Source of the DNA: Polyangiales bacterium
GTDB lineage: Bacteria > Myxococcota_A > Polyangia > Polyangiales > JAWKRM01
DNA: 64,000 bases
Direction of reading: 5' to 3'
Assembly: GCA_041389625.1 (NCBI GenBank)
Contig: JAWKRM010000003.1
Coordinates: 101,636 to 165,635, forward strand
Below the pieces are notes generated by a model, which worked only from the letters and a program-made list of their open reading frames with translations, did no database searches and was not told the DNA's origin. Below are positions 32,385 through 41,262 of the stretch, in pieces; within the stretch, counting starts at the first letter, position 1, and each line of letters begins with the position of its first letter. A program made the translations under genes and the position numbers.

Positions 32385-33233
32385 ATGACTTCCACGCAGC
32401 GCGAAATCGAGGTCTCGTACGACGTCTCGAACGAGTTCTTTAACCTCTGGCTCGACGAGGGCATGCACTACACGAGTGCGAGCTTCTTCTCCGGCAAGGA
32501 GAGCCTCGAGCAGGCCCAGATTCAGAAGTGCAAGATTCTCTACGAGTACGCCGAGATGGCGCCGGAGAAGCTCGTGCTCGACATCGGCTGCGGCTGGGGT
32601 TCGAACCTCGAGTACCTCGTGAGCCGCGGCACGAAGCGCGCCCACGGCATCACGCTCTCGACCGAGCAGGCCAACTGGGTCCACTCGCGCAAGCTCCCCG
32701 GCGTCGACGTCCTCGTCTGCGACTACAAGGACTACGAGCCGAAGGAAAAGTACGACGCGCTCATTTCGATCGAGATGATCGACCACCTCTGCTCGCCCGC
32801 GCAGGCGAACCAGGGCCTCGCCATCGACATCTACCGCGAGTACTTCCGGAAGACGTCGACCTGGGTGAAGCCGGGCTCGTGCTTCGGCTTCCAGGCGATT
32901 CTTCGAAACCGCGTGCCGCGGAACCGGAAGGACCTCGAAGACCTCGCCTTCACCGCCGACGTCATCTTCCCGGGCGGCCTGAACCCGCGCCTCGAAGAGC
33001 TCGTCGCCGCCGTGAATCCCTATTGGGAGGTGCTCGAGCTTCGGACGCAGCGCGAGGCCTACGGCAAGACCACCGGCGAGTGGCTCCGCAAGCTCCAGAT
33101 GCACGAGAAGACCATCCGCGAGAAGTGGGGCGACACCGTGTACGACGACTACGTCCGCTACCTCTCCACCTGCGTGCGCGCCTTCGAGATGCACTACTCG
33201 AGCGACGTGCAGATGAAGCTGCGGAAGATCTAG
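32385..33233 (+). CDS. cyclopropane-fatty-acyl-phospholipid-synthase-like SAM methyltransferase
   Basis: ATG at 32385 gives the CMAS-family N-terminus (VSYDVSNEFFNLWLDEGMHYTSA). SAM motif I is VLDIGCGWGS, and the typical ..ISIEMIDH.. is present. The upstream part of ORF 32037.. is antisense to 31836..32288. Confidence 0.85.
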   Translation: MTSTQREIEVSYDVSNEFFNLWLDEGMHYTSASFFSGKESLEQAQIQKCKILYEYAEMAPEKLVLDIGCGWGSNLEYLVSRGTKRAHGITLSTEQANWVHSRKLPGVDVLVCDYKDYEPKEKYDALISIEMIDHLCSPAQANQGLAIDIYREYFRKTSTWVKPGSCFGFQAILRNRVPRNRKDLEDLAFTADVIFPGGLNPRLEELVAAVNPYWEVLELRTQREAYGKTTGEWLRKLQMHEKTIREKWGDTVYDDYVRYLSTCVRAFEMHYSSDVQMKLRKI

Positions 33234-33254
33234 GCAGCGCGAAACCCGGGAGCC

Positions 33255-33546
33255 AAAGCTGAGCTTTCGGGAAGCGGTCACCGGGACCGAATCTGAAAGC
33301 TGAGCTTTCGAGGGGCGGTCATCGGGACCAAATCTGAAAGCTGAGCTTTCGACAGGCGTTCACCGGGAACCGATTTCCAAGGCTGGGCTTTCCGCATCGG
33401 TTCACGGAGACCCGCGCACCAAAGCTGAGCTTTCCGCGGCGGTTCACGGGGAACCGCGGATGAAAGCTCAGCTTTCGGACGCCGTTGCGGAAGACCCGCG
33501 CATCAAAGCCAGGCTCTCGCCCGTCATCCCAGCCACCTCACGCACG
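33255..33546. repeat. tandem array U: seven 41-42-bp units, each with two short dyads
   Basis: Units start at 33255, 33296, 33337, 33379, 33421, 33463 and 33505. Each opens with (G)AAAGCT-N-AGCTTT(C), followed by CGGT(T)C-N5-G(A)ACCG. Confidence 0.9.
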
Positions 33547-33606
33547 CTCCCCAGCTCAAATTTTTCAATCACTCCGGCCCCCGCCGCAGCCACAAACCCT
33601 CATCCA

Positions 33607-33816
33607 GAGCACCCGGAGTGCCCCAAACCAAGCCCGGAGTTCAAAACCGAGCACCCGGAGTGCGCGAAACCAAGCCCGCAGTTCAACTCCGGGCACTCCG
33701 AGTGCCCCGGATGAAGTCCCAGGTTCAAACCTGGGCACCCCGAGTGCTCCAAGCCGAGCATCGAGCTCAACCCCGGGCACTCCGAGTGCCCCGTGGCGAA
33801 CGTTCAGTTCAACCGA
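33607..33816. repeat. tandem array V: five exact 42-bp units, each with a 17-bp dyad
   Basis: Units start at 33607, 33649, 33691, 33733 and 33775. The dyad is GGGCACTC-C-GAGTGCCC, perfect in units 3 and 5. A downstream (C)AGTTCAA(A/C)C box follows. Confidence 0.9.
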
Positions 33817-33873
33817 GAAGCCAGTCCGCTCGTCGAGCTAAGTGGGAACAGTCGGCCGCCGCGCGAGAAAGAG

Positions 33874-33932
33874 GGGGACACGAGACTCAATTCTCGACGC
33901 TCCGAAATAGGTCTCGTTTCCCCTTGTTTTCG
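33874..33932 (+). terminator. intrinsic-terminator-like hairpin with a T-rich tail
   Basis: GGGGACACGAGAC (33874-33886) pairs with GTCTCGTTTCCCC (33911-33923) at 12 of 13 positions. The loop is 24 nt, unusually large. The tail is TTGTTTT. Confidence 0.45.
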
Positions 33933-34096
33933 CGCCGTACTAGCCACCGCGTCGCGAGAGTCTTCGTACCGGTGGACGCTCGAGCGGCGGCGTGCGCGCC
34001 GCCCACCGACTGCGGGCTCCGTAGGGGCATTCGGTGGTGGCGCAGCGGCCCCCGGCTTGCGGGCGGGTTTTGCGGAGCGGTACACTGCGACGAACG

Positions 34097-35542
34097 ATGG
34101 GGACGACGGACGTTCGCGCACGGGAGGGGGTGGGGCGTCGGTGGAGCCTCTCGGCGCTCGCCTGCGTGGCTCTCGGCGGCTGCCACGATTTCGATGCGCT
34201 TCGGGCATCGGACGGGGGATCGGACACCGAGGCTGCTGTGGAAGCGGGCATGGAGGGGGGCGCGGTCCCGGATCCGATTCGCCCAAGCTTCGTGAGCCCC
34301 AAGAACCTGGCGGCGGCGCTCGCGGGGACCCGGGAGATCATCCTCGAGGGCGGCGTCACCGCGTTGTGGGATGTGGAGTCGGGGGAGCTTCAGGTGAAAG
34401 GTGAAGACGAGCCGAGATTCACACAGGAGCCGCTCGTGGAGTCGCAGGGGGACGGAATGCCCGAACTCGCGGTGTTCCCCGTCGCCCGCCTTGTTGTGAG
34501 CTCGAACGCCACGCTCCAATTCGCCGGCCCCCATGCGGTCGTGCTCTCGGCCAGGGAGGGGATCGACATCGCGGGCACGGTCACCGTCGGCGCGAAGGGG
34601 GGGCTCGGCGGCCCCGGCGGCGCGACGTCACTTCCCGAAGTCGGTGAGCTCAGTTTCCCAGTGTCGGGTCAGCAGGGACCGAAAGGCGGGAACGATCTGG
34701 TCAACGCGTACGCATATTCAGGGGCCGGGGGCGGCGGAAATGGGGCGCCGGGCGGCAGCGGTGGCTTCGCATGGGCGAAGAACGGCGTCGGTTCCGCAGC
34801 AAGCGCGCTCGGCGGACCTGGAGGCGCCGCATGGGCGGATGTTTCGGATTGGGATGCTCGTGCGGCGCTCGTCGGCGGCGGGGCGGGCGGGCCGACGCGA
34901 TGCGGAGTCAATTTCGAGGCTCGCGCGCAAGGTGGTGGTGGCGGTGGGGCGCTCCTCCTCGCTTCGCAGCGCAGCATCGTCCTCCGGGCCTCGGGCCGCG
35001 TTTCGGCTCCGGGGGCGGGCGGACCAGCGCCGGTGGACGCGGCCAACTGCGAGCCCGACCGTTCGGTCGCGGGTGCGGGCGGCGGCGCGGGTGGCACGTT
35101 GGTGCTCGAGGCGCCGCGCGTCGAGATAGCGGGTACCGTGGCAGCGAACGGAGGCGGCGGGGCGGGTTCAGGTCGCAACGCGCTGGCGGTCGAGGCCTCC
35201 CGAGGCAAGGTCGGAACGGACGGGCAGCCCGGCATTCAGGTGGCCGGGGGTGGCGCCGCGGGCGCCAACCACGACTCCGGCGACGGCTACAGCTATCGAC
35301 ATAGCGCAGGTGGCTCGGGCGGTGCCGCGGGCGCTTCGCTGGCACCCGGAGCCGAAGGCGTGACTCTCATGCACATGGTCACTGCGCTCCAAAGCATCAG
35401 CAGCATCTCCGGTGGCGGTGGTGGCGGCGCAGGTCGCATCGAGATCCGGACCGCAAGCGGTGTCCGCGATGCGGCTTGGGTGCTCTCGCCCAGCGACGCC
35501 CCGCAGGTTATCGTGGAGCAGGTCATGCCACTCGCGGAGTAG
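34097..35542 (+). CDS. glycine-rich repeat lipoprotein of unknown function
   Basis: ATG at 34097. The lipobox is VALGGC. Recurring G-runs are flanked by short beta-like segments (GGGGGGALLLASQRSIVLRASGRVSAPGAGG; GGGAGGTLVLEAPRVEIAGTVAANGGGGAGSG; GGGGGGAGRIEIRTASG), suggesting a beta-helix-like solenoid. Confidence 0.7.
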   Translation: MGTTDVRAREGVGRRWSLSALACVALGGCHDFDALRASDGGSDTEAAVEAGMEGGAVPDPIRPSFVSPKNLAAALAGTREIILEGGVTALWDVESGELQVKGEDEPRFTQEPLVESQGDGMPELAVFPVARLVVSSNATLQFAGPHAVVLSAREGIDIAGTVTVGAKGGLGGPGGATSLPEVGELSFPVSGQQGPKGGNDLVNAYAYSGAGGGGNGAPGGSGGFAWAKNGVGSAASALGGPGGAAWADVSDWDARAALVGGGAGGPTRCGVNFEARAQGGGGGGALLLASQRSIVLRASGRVSAPGAGGPAPVDAANCEPDRSVAGAGGGAGGTLVLEAPRVEIAGTVAANGGGGAGSGRNALAVEASRGKVGTDGQPGIQVAGGGAAGANHDSGDGYSYRHSAGGSGGAAGASLAPGAEGVTLMHMVTALQSISSISGGGGGGAGRIEIRTASGVRDAAWVLSPSDAPQVIVEQVMPLAE

Positions 35543-35595
35543 GCGTCCAATCCAGCGCTGGAGCGGTTCCTTGGTGGGGCTGAACGCTCACGACA

Positions 35596-35612
35596 GAGCA
35601 CTCGGAGTGCCC
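35596..35612. repeat. solo copy of the V-type dyad
   Basis: GAGCACTC-G-GAGTGCCC is followed by ..caagccgagcc.. The 9-mer aagccgagc is shared with V unit 4. It lies 54 nt after the glycine-rich gene and 179 nt before acnA. Confidence 0.7.
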
Positions 35613-35790
35613 ACTCGCAAGCCGAGCCAAACGCGGCGAAGCACCGAACTTGCTCACCGACATCCCGCCCAACCCTTGTCGCAACAGGCGATCCGACTCA
35701 CCTCTGCCATCCGAATTGAACCGATTTCCCCTCGTCGCCGCCGTTTTCCTGGGGGTTCTTTGGCCCTAGGCCTCGTGGTAGGACAGCGCC

Positions 35791-38457
<2,667 letters not shown>

Positions 38458-38943: not shown

Positions 38944-39831
38944 CTACTCCCCGCAGGGAATCGCCTTCGTGCCCACGGCCACGTCGTCGACGTAGGTGGT
39001 GGCGGGGCCCGGCGCGAGGGAACCGCTCGACCAGGTATAGGGGATGGGTAGGAAGAGGTGCTTGTACCCGCCCGGCACGTCGAAGGTGGCCGGTCCGCCG
39101 TTGCCCGTGGCCGGCGACGTCTGCATGTAGAGTGATTCCGTTCCGCCCGCTGGCTTGATGTAGACGGTCTGTTGGGGGGGATCGAAACGGACCTCCGCGC
39201 GGAAGCAGAACCACTTGTTGAGCGGAAGCCCGGCGCCGGCCGTGTCGTGGGCGTAGCTGGTGTTGTCGCCGGTGCCGTCGTAGCGCTCGAAGTAGAAGCC
39301 CGCCCCCGCCTGCGTGCCGGTTCGGCCGAGGGCGTAGTAGCTGATCGCGCCCGAGTTGTCGTTCGGGCGAGCGGTTTCGCTCTCAAAGTCGGCGATATCG
39401 AAATGGACGATGGCATCGTCGTCGGTGCTTTCGTCGTCCGCGATGAAGTAGTACGCACGAAAGTAGAGCGTGCCGTTGTCGATCGCGCTTGAGAGAACGC
39501 CCTTGAGTGCGGAGGTGCCCGGCGCACCATCCACCTTGCCGCGCGCCGCCCCGCTGCCGCTGTGCACGGGCTCTGGCGCGGTGACGCGAATGGCGGGGGT
39601 CTCGGGTGCACCCGTCGGTAGCCAAGCGGACAGCGCGTCATCCTCGAATCCATCGCAGAACACGAGACCGTCGAGGGAGTCACAGTCCAACGGGTTTCCG
39701 CCGGCGCACGCGTCTCCTTCGCACGCGACGGCGCCGTCGGCGGTCGCGCGATCGAAGCCGAAGTCGAAGCAGCCTGCCAAGCAGCTCGCGGCGAGGGCGA
39801 AACACACGCCACGCACGGGCGCACGGTGCAT
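38944..39831 (-). CDS. lipoprotein with a concanavalin-A-like (LamG / lectin-glucanase fold) domain
   Basis: Start is ATG 39831 or 39864. The lipobox is SCLAGC. After a Cys-rich linker comes the typical FCDGFEDDALSAWL.. opening of jelly-roll domains, followed by a beta-rich body. Confidence 0.65.
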   Translation of the reverse strand: MHRAPVRGVCFALAASCLAGCFDFGFDRATADGAVACEGDACAGGNPLDCDSLDGLVFCDGFEDDALSAWLPTGAPETPAIRVTAPEPVHSGSGAARGKVDGAPGTSALKGVLSSAIDNGTLYFRAYYFIADDESTDDDAIVHFDIADFESETARPNDNSGAISYYALGRTGTQAGAGFYFERYDGTGDNTSYAHDTAGAGLPLNKWFCFRAEVRFDPPQQTVYIKPAGGTESLYMQTSPATGNGGPATFDVPGGYKHLFLPIPYTWSSGSLAPGPATTYVDDVAVGTKAIPCGE

Positions 39832-39960
39832 CGGGAACGTCGCGTGGTGGGAGCTCCGATGCATGCGCGAGGAAGCCTACCACGCGTCCTCGCCGCGTCG
39901 TGCGAGCCGCTTCTCCCCATTGGAATTCTCAAGTACGCTGGTCGGCATTCCGCGAACCGC

Positions 39961-41262
39961 ATGAGCAAGCCTTCGAACGATCCCGAGACGCTTGAACAGC
40001 CCGATTTGGTCCGCCTTTTTGGGGTCGTCACCAGGGCGTGTCCCTCCGTGCGATGGACCGATTCCGGGGGCGAGCACGAGTTCATCGTCGAATCGAACCG
40101 CGCCGTCATCGGCTCGGGGGGCGGCGTGGACGTTCAGCTCGCCGATCCACTCGTCTCACGGCTCCATGCGGAGTTCGAGCTTGGCGACAACGGGCTCTGG
40201 GTGACCGACCTCGGAAGCAAGAATGGCTCGTACGTGAACGGCGTTCGCGTGCGTGGCGCACGGATTCCTCCGAATGGGGTGGTGCAACTCGGATCGACGG
40301 AGCTGCGCGTGCACTATGGCGCCCCTCCCATGCCCGTCGATGTCTGGCCCGAAGAGGGGTTCGGGCAACTTGTGGGCAAGTCCGTGCTGATGCGCGAGCT
40401 TTTCGCGAAGCTCGCTCGCATCGCGAAGCTCGATGACGGCGTCTTGATCCAGGGCGAGACGGGCACGGGCAAAGAACTTGTCGCGCGCGCGATTCACGAC
40501 CATTCACCGCGCGCCCAAGCGCCATTCGCAGTGGTCGATTGTGCGGCCCTCCCTGGCAACCTGCTCGAGGTCGAACTGTTTGGGCATGCGAGGGGAGCGT
40601 TCACGGGCGCGTCGGACGCACGGGAGGGCACGATCGAGGCGGCGGCGGGCGGCACGGTGCTCCTCGACGAGATTGGTGAGCTTCCGCTCGAGCTCCAACC
40701 GAAGCTCCTGCGTGTCATCGAGTCCCATTCGCTGCGGCGTCTCGGCGAAACGGAGTTCCGGGAAGTCGACGTTCGCTTCATTGCGGCGACGCACCGGAAC
40801 CTCCGGGAGATGGTCAACAACGGTACGTTTCGTGAAGACCTGTACTTCCGGATCGCGGTATTCCCCGTCCTGATCCCGCCGCTTCGTGATCGCGTCGAAG
40901 ACATCCCATTGCTGATCAAGAAGATGTTCCCGAATCAGCCCGAAGGAACGATTCCGCCCGAACTCATGCGCGTGCTGCGCGAGCGGCCGTGGTCCGGCAA
41001 CGTGCGTGAGCTTCGCAATTTCGTGAATCGAGCCGCCGTGTTCGGTGCTTCGGAGGCGGCGGAGACGATGCAGCGACCCCGGAAGGTCGAAACGAGCGAA
41101 ATGAACTTCTCAGAAGCCCGTACGGAGATGATTCACGCCTTCGAGCGTCAGTACGTCAAGGAACTCCTCGAACGGCATGGGCACAATGTTACGGCGGCGG
41201 CGGAGGCGGCTGGGATCACCCGCGTTTGGCTCCACAAGCTGGTCCGCAAACACTCGCTGTAG
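39961..41262 (+). CDS. sigma-54-dependent transcriptional activator with an N-terminal FHA domain
   Basis: ATG at 39961. The FHA region reads VIGSGGGVDVQLADPLVSRLHAEFELGDNGLWVTDLGSKNGSYVNG. The AAA+ core has GETGTGKE and ELFGHARGAFTGA. The C-terminal Fis-type HTH reads GHNVTAAAEAAGITRVWLHKLVRKH. Confidence 0.9.
   Translation: MSKPSNDPETLEQPDLVRLFGVVTRACPSVRWTDSGGEHEFIVESNRAVIGSGGGVDVQLADPLVSRLHAEFELGDNGLWVTDLGSKNGSYVNGVRVRGARIPPNGVVQLGSTELRVHYGAPPMPVDVWPEEGFGQLVGKSVLMRELFAKLARIAKLDDGVLIQGETGTGKELVARAIHDHSPRAQAPFAVVDCAALPGNLLEVELFGHARGAFTGASDAREGTIEAAAGGTVLLDEIGELPLELQPKLLRVIESHSLRRLGETEFREVDVRFIAATHRNLREMVNNGTFREDLYFRIAVFPVLIPPLRDRVEDIPLLIKKMFPNQPEGTIPPELMRVLRERPWSGNVRELRNFVNRAAVFGASEAAETMQRPRKVETSEMNFSEARTEMIHAFERQYVKELLERHGHNVTAAAEAAGITRVWLHKLVRKHSL

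Follow-up and report, generated by a model that had tools for sequence, protein, structure and literature searches.

A composite array of palindromic tandem repeats with REP/BIME-like anatomy in an intergenic gap of an uncultured Polyangiales bacterium

Mycobacterial interspersed repetitive units (MIRUs) are minisatellites of 40-100-bp direct tandem repeats between co-oriented genes, often with lengths that are multiples of 3 and with small open reading frames (ORFs) running through them. They are not defined by a conserved perfect palindrome, and their copy number varies between strains. The KorB operator OB (TTTAGC-S-GCTAAA) and matS are operators for dimeric proteins, of the ParB family or others; they are 13-bp palindromes and lie scattered singly. 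Repetitive extragenic palindromic (REP) sequences fall into two described superfamilies, defined by a conserved tetranucleotide (GTAG or CGTC) that tags one end of the palindrome (PMC3733652), and REP clusters reiterated in tandem have been documented (PMC3733652; PMC3333891). The sopC site of the F plasmid consists of 12 direct 43-bp repeats, in each of which SopB binds an inverted repeat of 16 bp (PMC3177203). In this study, we analysed a stretch of 64,000 nucleotides (the window; 66.7% G+C) from contig JAWKRM010000003.1 (positions 101,636 to 165,635; assembly GCA_041389625.1) of an uncultured Polyangiales bacterium. It carries array U, a series of seven head-to-tail units with conserved dyad symmetries in a gap between two genes. 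In our judgement, array U has an even chance of being one half of a non-coding palindromic repeat cluster that resembles REP sequences and bacterial interspersed mosaic elements (BIMEs).

The initial annotation of array U was accurate in the seven unit starts, the unit lengths and the quality of the first dyad in every unit (Table 1). The core of this dyad is AAAGCT-N-AGCTTT, and its 15-bp form is GAAAGCT-N-AGCTTTC. Tandem Repeats Finder reported positions 33255-33373 with a period of 41 and 2.9 copies (score 180) and positions 33337-33476 with a period of 42 and 3.3 copies (score 140). A repeat finder returned copies at 33255, 33296, 33337, 33379 and 33421, spaced by 41, 41, 42 and 42, and units 6 and 7 continue this register. 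Unit-to-unit identity ranged from 61 to 88% and decayed along the array, from U1 and U2, which were 88% alike, to U7, which was barely recognisable. When the window was searched for the 15-bp dyad GAAAGCTNAGCTTTC with no more than 2 mismatches, 5 matches were obtained, all of them within array U, compared with 0.10 expected; none of the 100 shuffles reached 5. The first dyad deviated from the consensus at 3/84 positions, compared with 46/160 in the rest of the unit (p=5e-7), thereby bearing out the view that it is a meaningful module. An assembly artefact, which had been named as a possible source of the pattern, was examined using an independent Logan assembly (L164, SRR15882951). This assembly was 99.67% identical to the window over 33194-36186, with all 10 differences at or beyond 35211; the arrays are base-for-base the same in both and are therefore no assembly artefact. 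Outside the dyads, the 12-mer AACCGATTTCC(C) at the tail of U3 (33367-33378) has a second copy in the window at 35718-35729, upstream of the aconitase gene, which was at chance level by BLAST (E 2.7).

Array U is half of a composite that continues through a 60-nt linker into a second array, array V, with G+C contents of 0.59-0.65 throughout the array region. Array V obtained Tandem Repeats Finder scores of 177-217, and an 84-bp super-period was also reported. The search for the V dyad gave 16 matches in the window compared with 1.56 expected, and mismatches were again concentrated outside the dyad (4/65 in the dyad versus 35/140 in the rest of the unit, p=1e-3); the hexamer GTTCAA is conserved late in every V unit. 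A V remnant lies 1.8 kb beyond array V, in the intergenic region between a gene for a 481-aa protein and the aconitase gene, and V units are thus present on both sides of the 481-aa gene. Array V is followed by a long hairpin, the 26-nt arms of which show 77% complementarity (fold -49.6 kcal/mol, z -2.4), with T-rich tails on both strands. The terminator scan did not call this hairpin because its loop exceeds 8 nt. The homologous locus described below likewise has a hairpin ~50 nt after its V array. The hairpin in the window is a likely terminator of the transcript of the upstream methyltransferase gene, which would place array U and array V in the 3' untranslated region of that transcript.

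A protein search led to a homologous composite in a second Myxococcota genome through MCA9603719.1, the hypothetical protein KC417_16925 of a Myxococcales metagenome-assembled genome (MAG; contig L162), and a longer Logan contig of the same run (L163) was also available. In L163, the U array comprises at least five units (41, 42, 42, 42 and 42 bp) and is followed by a ~60-nt linker with shared blocks and by a V array of 5 x 42 bp; the window linker and that of L162 are 60% identical without gaps. The U units could be paired one by one, with identities of 0.73 (U2-Y1), 0.81 (U3-Y2), 0.81 (U5-Y3), 0.69 (U6-Y4) and 0.69 (U7-Y5), and U4 had no partner. The 41-bp early units and the G-to-C centre flip of U6 are common to both genomes, and the U3 tail GGAACCGATTTCT is kept in the orthologous unit. 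Between orthologous U units, the 14-nt dyad block differed at 6/70 positions compared with 47/139 in the spacer (p=4e-5), and the variability of the dyad was 5-8 times below that of the spacer, within array U as well as between the two genomes. The V units were reshuffled; for example, the unit at position 243 of L162 is nearest to V4. Beyond array V, no relationship between the two loci is left (41% identity), and the downstream genes are non-homologous, encoding the 481-aa Gly-rich protein in the window and a 294-aa Cys-rich secreted protein in L163. This comparison shows that only the first dyad and the unit length are kept between the two genomes.

No coding signal was detected in the arrays. 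The initial annotation had placed the signal at the level of nucleic acid and not of protein, and the substitutions agree with it in showing no bias by codon position. By frame position, the differences were 16/10/15 among V units and 7/8/15 among U3-U6 (not significant), and the substitutions between the genomes were 10/13/17 in U and 28/26/24 in V. The accompanying argument that the unit lengths break any frame was only partly borne out: U1 and U2 (41 bp) shift the frame, but from U3 through the linker and array V all lengths are multiples of 3. An 84-aa ORF spanning the junction of the two arrays had G+C contents of 0.59/0.59/0.71 by codon position, compared with 0.57/0.37/0.94 in the neighbouring gene, and among 1.84 billion representative proteins it matched only itself and one translation of the homologous array; the Logan gene call P0262 for this ORF is doubtful. 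The dyad would be read as AAA GCT .. CTT, that is, as rare codons in a genome with a third-position G+C of ~0.9. In the second genome, the U array is in a different frame relative to V, and KC417_16925 has G+C contents of 0.53/0.53/0.75 by codon position; MCA9603719.1 (L162 3-554) reads through both arrays of the composite and is probably no real gene.

The absence of the arrays from nearer and more remote relatives indicates a lineage-specific gain, and the V dyad is dispersed. In the relatives L097-L103, the next gene lies within ~60 bp of the methyltransferase gene and there is no element. In L160 (8595-12670) and L161 (8471-12670), the aconitase gene, whose product is 73-74% identical to that of the window, comes directly after the methyltransferase gene, with a spacer of 554-585 bp that has no arrays; the window spacer showed no homology to either spacer. 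Since these orthologous spacers are without arrays, the arrays and the 481-aa gene are lineage-specific additions. In metagenomes, a search for two V dyads 27-31 nt apart returned 28 further stretches, many of them long arrays in which the period is 41-45 bp and the number of units reaches 17; the spacing limits of the dyad patterns restricted the periods that could be found, and the mode at 42-43 bp is partly by construction. These V-type arrays often contain two or three alternating unit subtypes, their spacers are unrelated to those of the window, and the palindrome extends past the searched core, with the 3 positions on its left being purines in 17-19 of 22 arrays and the 3 on its right pyrimidines in 17-20 of 22. 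Several of the arrays came from the same samples (Ga0079224 and Ga0316628) and lay on several contigs. Inspection of 20 V-type arrays showed unrelated housekeeping genes beside them, including those for an ABC transporter, TauD, MntP, a desaturase, MerR and AraC regulators and an extracytoplasmic function (ECF) sigma factor. The possibility that the V dyad is a sigma-54 promoter (GGCAC-N5-GTGC, with -24/-12 spacing) was discarded as a general explanation, as most related arrays read AGCAC, without GG.

Mobile-element genes were observed beside some of these arrays. In L139, a V-type array with 12 or more units has a complete IS200/IS605 TnpA gene (1513-1935) at a distance of ~310 bp; this gene was rejected as a REP-associated tyrosine transposase (RAYT), with 135.6 bits for NF033573 compared with 33.9 for the RAYT model, and is a classical IS200/IS605 transposase. 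In L147, a C-terminal fragment of a Mu transposase overlaps the array edge. At the homologous locus, a 287-aa protein (L163 2803-3666) is encoded 2.3 kb from the composite, and its sole family match is NCBIfam NF047646, a REP-associated tyrosine transposase; it contains an NHYHL (HUH) motif and YLLTNPVTAGLV, with a C-terminal extension of ~145 aa.

A scan for two U dyads 24-32 nt apart returned 96 genome-contig stretches (L001-L096), none of them from a high-GC relative. Unrelated low-GC bacteria also have tandem arrays of AAAGCT-N-AGCTTT at multiple loci, and their periods are 20, 22 and 36-44 bp: Prevotella brunnea has more than 30 loci with a 22/44-bp period, a Bacteroidetes MAG has over 20 copies with a period of 20 bp, and in several Patescibacteria MAGs the period is 36-44 bp, with flanks that extend the palindrome differently in each group. 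These 96 stretches, with periods of 20-44 bp, were set aside as separate palindrome arrays. In viral contigs, U had only single matches at the level of chance and V had none, and plasmid blastn yielded no match. As a separate observation, L143, L144 and L158 (26-36% G+C) contain 43-bp tandem repeats with GCACTC-N-GAGTGC and GAGTTCA; these contigs are possibly non-bacterial, and the match may be due to chance. The heptamer GAGTTCA is also present in V1 and V2.

Table 1 Positions of the arrays, their units and the neighbouring features (window coordinates, except for the contigs in the last row)
Feature	Position	Strand	Dyad	Remarks
Array U	33255..33546	.		7 units of 41, 41, 42, 42, 42, 42, 42 bp
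U1	start 33255		33255-33267	6-bp arms
U2	start 33296		33296-33308	perfect
U3	start 33337		33337-33349	perfect
U4	start 33379		33379-33391	degenerate; two G.T positions
U5	start 33421		33421-33433	6-bp arms
U6	start 33463		33463-33475	perfect, centre C
U7	start 33505		33505-33517	degenerate; innermost pair T-A -> C-G
Linker	33547..33606	.		60 nt; two blocks shared with the homologous locus: ATTTTTCAATCA, CAGCCACAA
Array V	33607..33816	.	33609-33621, 33651-33663, 33693-33705, 33735-33747, 33777-33789	5 units, each exactly 42 bp; dyad GCACYC-N-GAGTGC
84-aa ORF	33460..33714	+		spans U6, U7, linker, V1-V3; Logan gene call P0262; judged spurious
Long hairpin	33863..33935	+		arms 33868-33893 and 33904-33929, then TTGTTTTCG
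V remnant, two units	35597..35654	.	35597-35611	perfect dyad AGCACTCGGAGTGCC, then CAAGCCGAGC as in V4
V remnant, second dyad			35640-35654	degenerate: AGCACCGAACTTGCT; centre-to-centre spacing 43 bp
Methyltransferase, CMAS-type, S-adenosylmethionine (SAM)-dependent	32385..33233	+		Pfam PF02353 2e-52; third-position GC 0.94
481-aa Gly-rich putative lipoprotein gene	34097..35542	+		codon-position GC; next real gene after the arrays
Aconitate hydratase AcnA	35791..38457	+		Pfam PF00330 3e-169, PF00694
Sigma-54-dependent activator (FHA, AAA+, HTH_8)	39826-41262			1.4 kb past the aconitase end
Low-GC U-dyad array examples	L022 4767-4920; L043 927-1420; L010 4685-4815

The neighbours of the composite in the window are genes for a TRAP transporter, the methyltransferase, the lipoprotein-like protein, aconitase, the sigma-54 activator and a kinase (Table 1). 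The methyltransferase gene follows the TRAP-transporter operon, and its stop codon lies 22 nt before U1. The 863-bp gap after it (33234-34096) had no strong coding signal by codon-position G+C, and no tRNA or tmRNA was found. The 481-aa gene (70-77% G+C) has a 42%-identical paralogue, R3A78_02555, on the same contig; its product had no Pfam or other family match and only distant homologues.

We favour a REP-type reading because the palindrome is the sole constrained module, the units are head to tail and intergenic, V is dispersed, the arrays were gained in a lineage and HUH/Y1 transposases lie nearby. Each 41/42-bp unit contains one constrained module, the dyad of 13-15 bp, and the other 27-29 bp drift and mainly keep the distance. 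This palindromic recognition module may have been copied head to tail within the intergenic spacer and, in the case of V, also to other intergenic sites. A protein would recognise the palindrome, which it could meet as a symmetric site in the duplex or, in RNA or single-stranded DNA, as a small hairpin. The most plausible spreading agent would be a HUH/Y1 tyrosine transposase of the REP-associated type, and growth within an array could have proceeded by unequal recombination or slippage. Given the terminator-like hairpin behind array V, the upstream mRNA probably also includes the arrays as its 3' tail.

Several observations weigh against this reading. Dispersal was shown for V and not for U: the U unit occupies a single locus in the window, and the U-unit pattern had 0 matches in the Joint Genome Institute (JGI) metagenomes. 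Dispersal as a REP-type repeat or a miniature inverted-repeat transposable element (MITE) had been put forward in the initial annotation as the outcome that would overturn its proposals, and it was found in part for V, at a second locus in the window and at many unrelated metagenome loci, but not for U, which occurs here and at one homologous locus. No RAYT-like gene was found in the 64-kb window; the ORF at 38944-39864 (-) was rejected as such a gene, with a weak tblastn match (E 0.14) and no family match. The NF047646 match of the 287-aa protein of L163 lies below the curated cut-off of the family (E 9e-14, model positions 7-144 of 146, 51.6 bits compared with 80), and this protein had no Pfam or PDB sequence match. 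Its gene is bracketed by an 18-nt inverted repeat (ACACCTTCCCAGGTTG, an inverted pair of a 16-26-nt element), which is neither the U nor the V dyad. Exactly 42 bp were retained in 15 of the 17 full units of the two genomes despite ~34% spacer divergence, and such ordered, almost indel-free conservation fits a selected spacing better than a selfish or slippage-prone repeat. Compared with described REPs and BIMEs, neither GTAG/CTAC nor a consistent CGTC/GACG stands beside the U or V dyads; the dyads have 6-bp arms and a one-base centre, whereas REPs have stems of 8-14 bp with a loop; and all units point the same way, head to tail, at a fixed period of 42 bp, whereas BIMEs alternate in orientation. 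The initial annotation recognised no known element; the anatomy is that of REP/BIME-type clusters, but the tags and the orientation differ.

The first alternative is a sopC-like, regulatory or architectural scaffold, in which one or two sequence-specific proteins would load cooperatively, as dimers, onto the 13-15-bp dyads, set on one face of the helix by a spacing of 42 bp (four turns); we consider it unlikely. The strongest point for it is that the spacers vary in sequence and nevertheless keep their length in the two genomes, and the conserved unit order, the perfect dyads with an odd centre and 6-bp half-sites, which are conserved as sequence rather than as mere pairing, would also suit such a site. 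The same design is found in sopC (PMC3177203). A sigma-54 activator with an HTH_8 domain is encoded 4 kb downstream. Against these points, no ParA/ParB, Rep or recurrent regulator gene was found beside the window array or the 20 V-type arrays, so that the centromere-like or iteron-like array proposed in the initial annotation lacks a partner gene at every one of these loci. Samples contain V-type arrays at several loci with unrelated surroundings, the two adjacent dyad types would need two proteins, and no similarity to plasmids was detected. Moreover, related arrays have periods of 41-45 bp and also of 20, 21 and 22 bp, so that helical phasing is no rule; the earlier argument from four helical turns per 42 bp does not hold generally, as arrays with the same dyads elsewhere have periods of 20, 22 and 36-45 bp. 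Plasmid iterons or a replication origin were rejected, given the absence of a rep gene, a unit length of 41-42 bp and not 17-22 bp, and a G+C content of 0.59-0.65 throughout. Resemblances to parS, the LexA box, IHF sites and the tRNA T-arm, noted by eye, do not hold across the units.

A related and more speculative idea, to which we assign a rather small probability, is that the composite is an old ordered nucleoprotein platform and not the debris of a selfish repeat, with its two sets of 13-15-bp dyads kept exactly four turns apart. The GCACTC-N-GAGTGC arrays would then form a large family in uncultured high-GC bacteria that marks sites of exchange for genes of secreted proteins, with a divergent RAYT-like protein as a possible reader. 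This idea arises because the gene after the composite differs between the two genomes and is bracketed by repeats in both. In L163, a further inverted pair of the ACACCTTCCCAGGTTG element brackets the 294-aa gene, with copies of the element at 540, 1723, 2753 and 3801; the ACACCTTCCCAGGTTG repeat is absent from the window. The element would be far more important if the dyads were loading sites for a dedicated protein or markers of gene exchange.

A functional RNA appears improbable. The arrays would in this case act as the methyltransferase 3' untranslated region or as a separate RNA, as a string of hairpins that stabilises the mRNA or sequesters an RNA-binding protein. The closeness of the array to the stop codon (22 nt) and the terminator-like hairpin after array V would agree with this; U1, U2, U3, U5 and U6 each fold as two small hairpins, both changes in the U4 dyad give G.U pairs on the + strand, and the change of the innermost U7 pair is compensated. 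However, whole arrays folded much better than shuffles whichever strand was taken (z -4.6 to -7.5), as any set of palindromes does, and single U units were no more stable than shuffles as RNA (z -0.5 to -0.9), which also speaks against the string of RNA hairpins offered as an option in the initial annotation. The imperfect V dyads have C.A mismatches on the + strand, thereby pointing to the opposite strand from U. Rfam 15 gave 0 matches at the gathering score over the whole window, and the gap contained only sub-threshold generic hairpins (E<=5) at chance level. Neither GGA nor other loop motifs are conserved, and a CsrA-type GGA hairpin sponge was rejected since GGA is unconserved in either array on either strand.

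The second hairpin of the units is not conserved between genomes. The initial annotation had described a second dyad in the U units, and this was real in U1 (5-bp arms, CGGTC/GACCG) and U5 (7-bp arms, GCGGTTC/GAACCGC) and weaker in U2 and U3. Overall it was no better than in shuffled spacers: the best arm averaged 4.2 bp compared with 3.6 bp in shuffled spacers (20 units, two genomes), and only U5 (p=0.018) and V3 (p=0.005) exceeded the shuffles. The second dyads were not kept between the window and the L162/L163 arrays. Covariation in the second dyad was considered and dropped, because its register and arms vary among units and the arm lengths are not above shuffles, and we draw no structural conclusion from it. 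Six metagenome V-type arrays have a second dyad of the type GGTC-N-GACC, which is also that of U1 and U2, and 7 control dyads hardly occur there.

There is likewise little chance that the composite is a neutral minisatellite, in which a palindrome-bearing segment without function was duplicated by slippage and its dyad kept by hairpin-biased repair or gene conversion. Such an origin would suit the decay gradient along array U, the presence of U4 in one genome and its absence from the other, and the reshuffled V units. It fits poorly with a dyad 5-8 times less variable than the spacer within and between genomes, with the order and unit lengths kept through ~34% spacer divergence, and with the occurrence of the same V dyad at the head of arrays with unrelated spacers in many metagenome contigs. 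A CRISPR array was also rejected: the 'spacers' are mutually homologous (61-88% unit identity), the period is 42 bp and not ~60-80 bp, and there are no cas genes among the annotated neighbours.

Hardly credible, finally, is an intact or decayed protein-coding gene whose product would consist of 14-residue repeats (KAELSAAVHGEPRx and EHPECxKPSPxFNx), for example a repeat peptide precursor: the 42-bp periods and the 60-nt linker leave one frame open from U3 through array V, the homologous composite has an open 183/187-aa ORF (annotated as KC417_16925) beside the 84-aa ORF of the window, and third-position G+C is mildly raised (0.71-0.75), but third-position differences are not in excess within V or between genomes, V3 contains a TGA stop, U1-U2 shift the frame, related arrays have periods of 41, 43 and 44 bp, and the frame change between genomes, the rare codons of the dyad and the protein search reported above all speak against it.

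If the REP-type reading is correct, REP-type clusters extend to uncultured Myxococcota in a form that definitions based on GTAG/CGTC tags and alternating units would miss. The V-dyad family is widespread in uncultured high-GC bacteria. Two genomes with unit-by-unit orthology provide a clean case for determining which parts of an array are selected. Such arrays are also a probable source of spurious 'hypothetical proteins', at least one of which is in GenBank (KC417_16925).

Among the described systems, MIRUs share with this locus the direct tandem intergenic repeats, lengths that are multiples of 3 and small ORFs running through them; they differ in that the array here has kept its unit order between two diverged genomes. 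The KorB operator and matS resemble the dyads in being 13-bp perfect palindromes with 6-bp arms and a central G or C, but their sequences differ, and here the palindromes form 42-bp tandem arrays. The sopC site is almost the same in period, copy number and logic: its tandem units of 43 bp each contain a short inverted repeat, and the protein reads nothing else of the unit. However, sopC lies beside sopA/sopB on a plasmid, once per replicon, whereas the composite lies in a chromosomal housekeeping context with no partition genes nearby and has two dyad types and several V-type loci. The likeness to REP/BIME clusters comprises short extragenic palindromes just after a gene (in the 863-bp gap past the methyltransferase stop), tandem clusters, occurrence at other intergenic sites, insertion sequences beside some arrays and a transposase-like gene of the REP-associated type near the homologous locus. 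What sets the composite apart from REP/BIME clusters, besides tag, stem and orientation, is that it joins two dyad families in one fixed order, which is kept between genomes.

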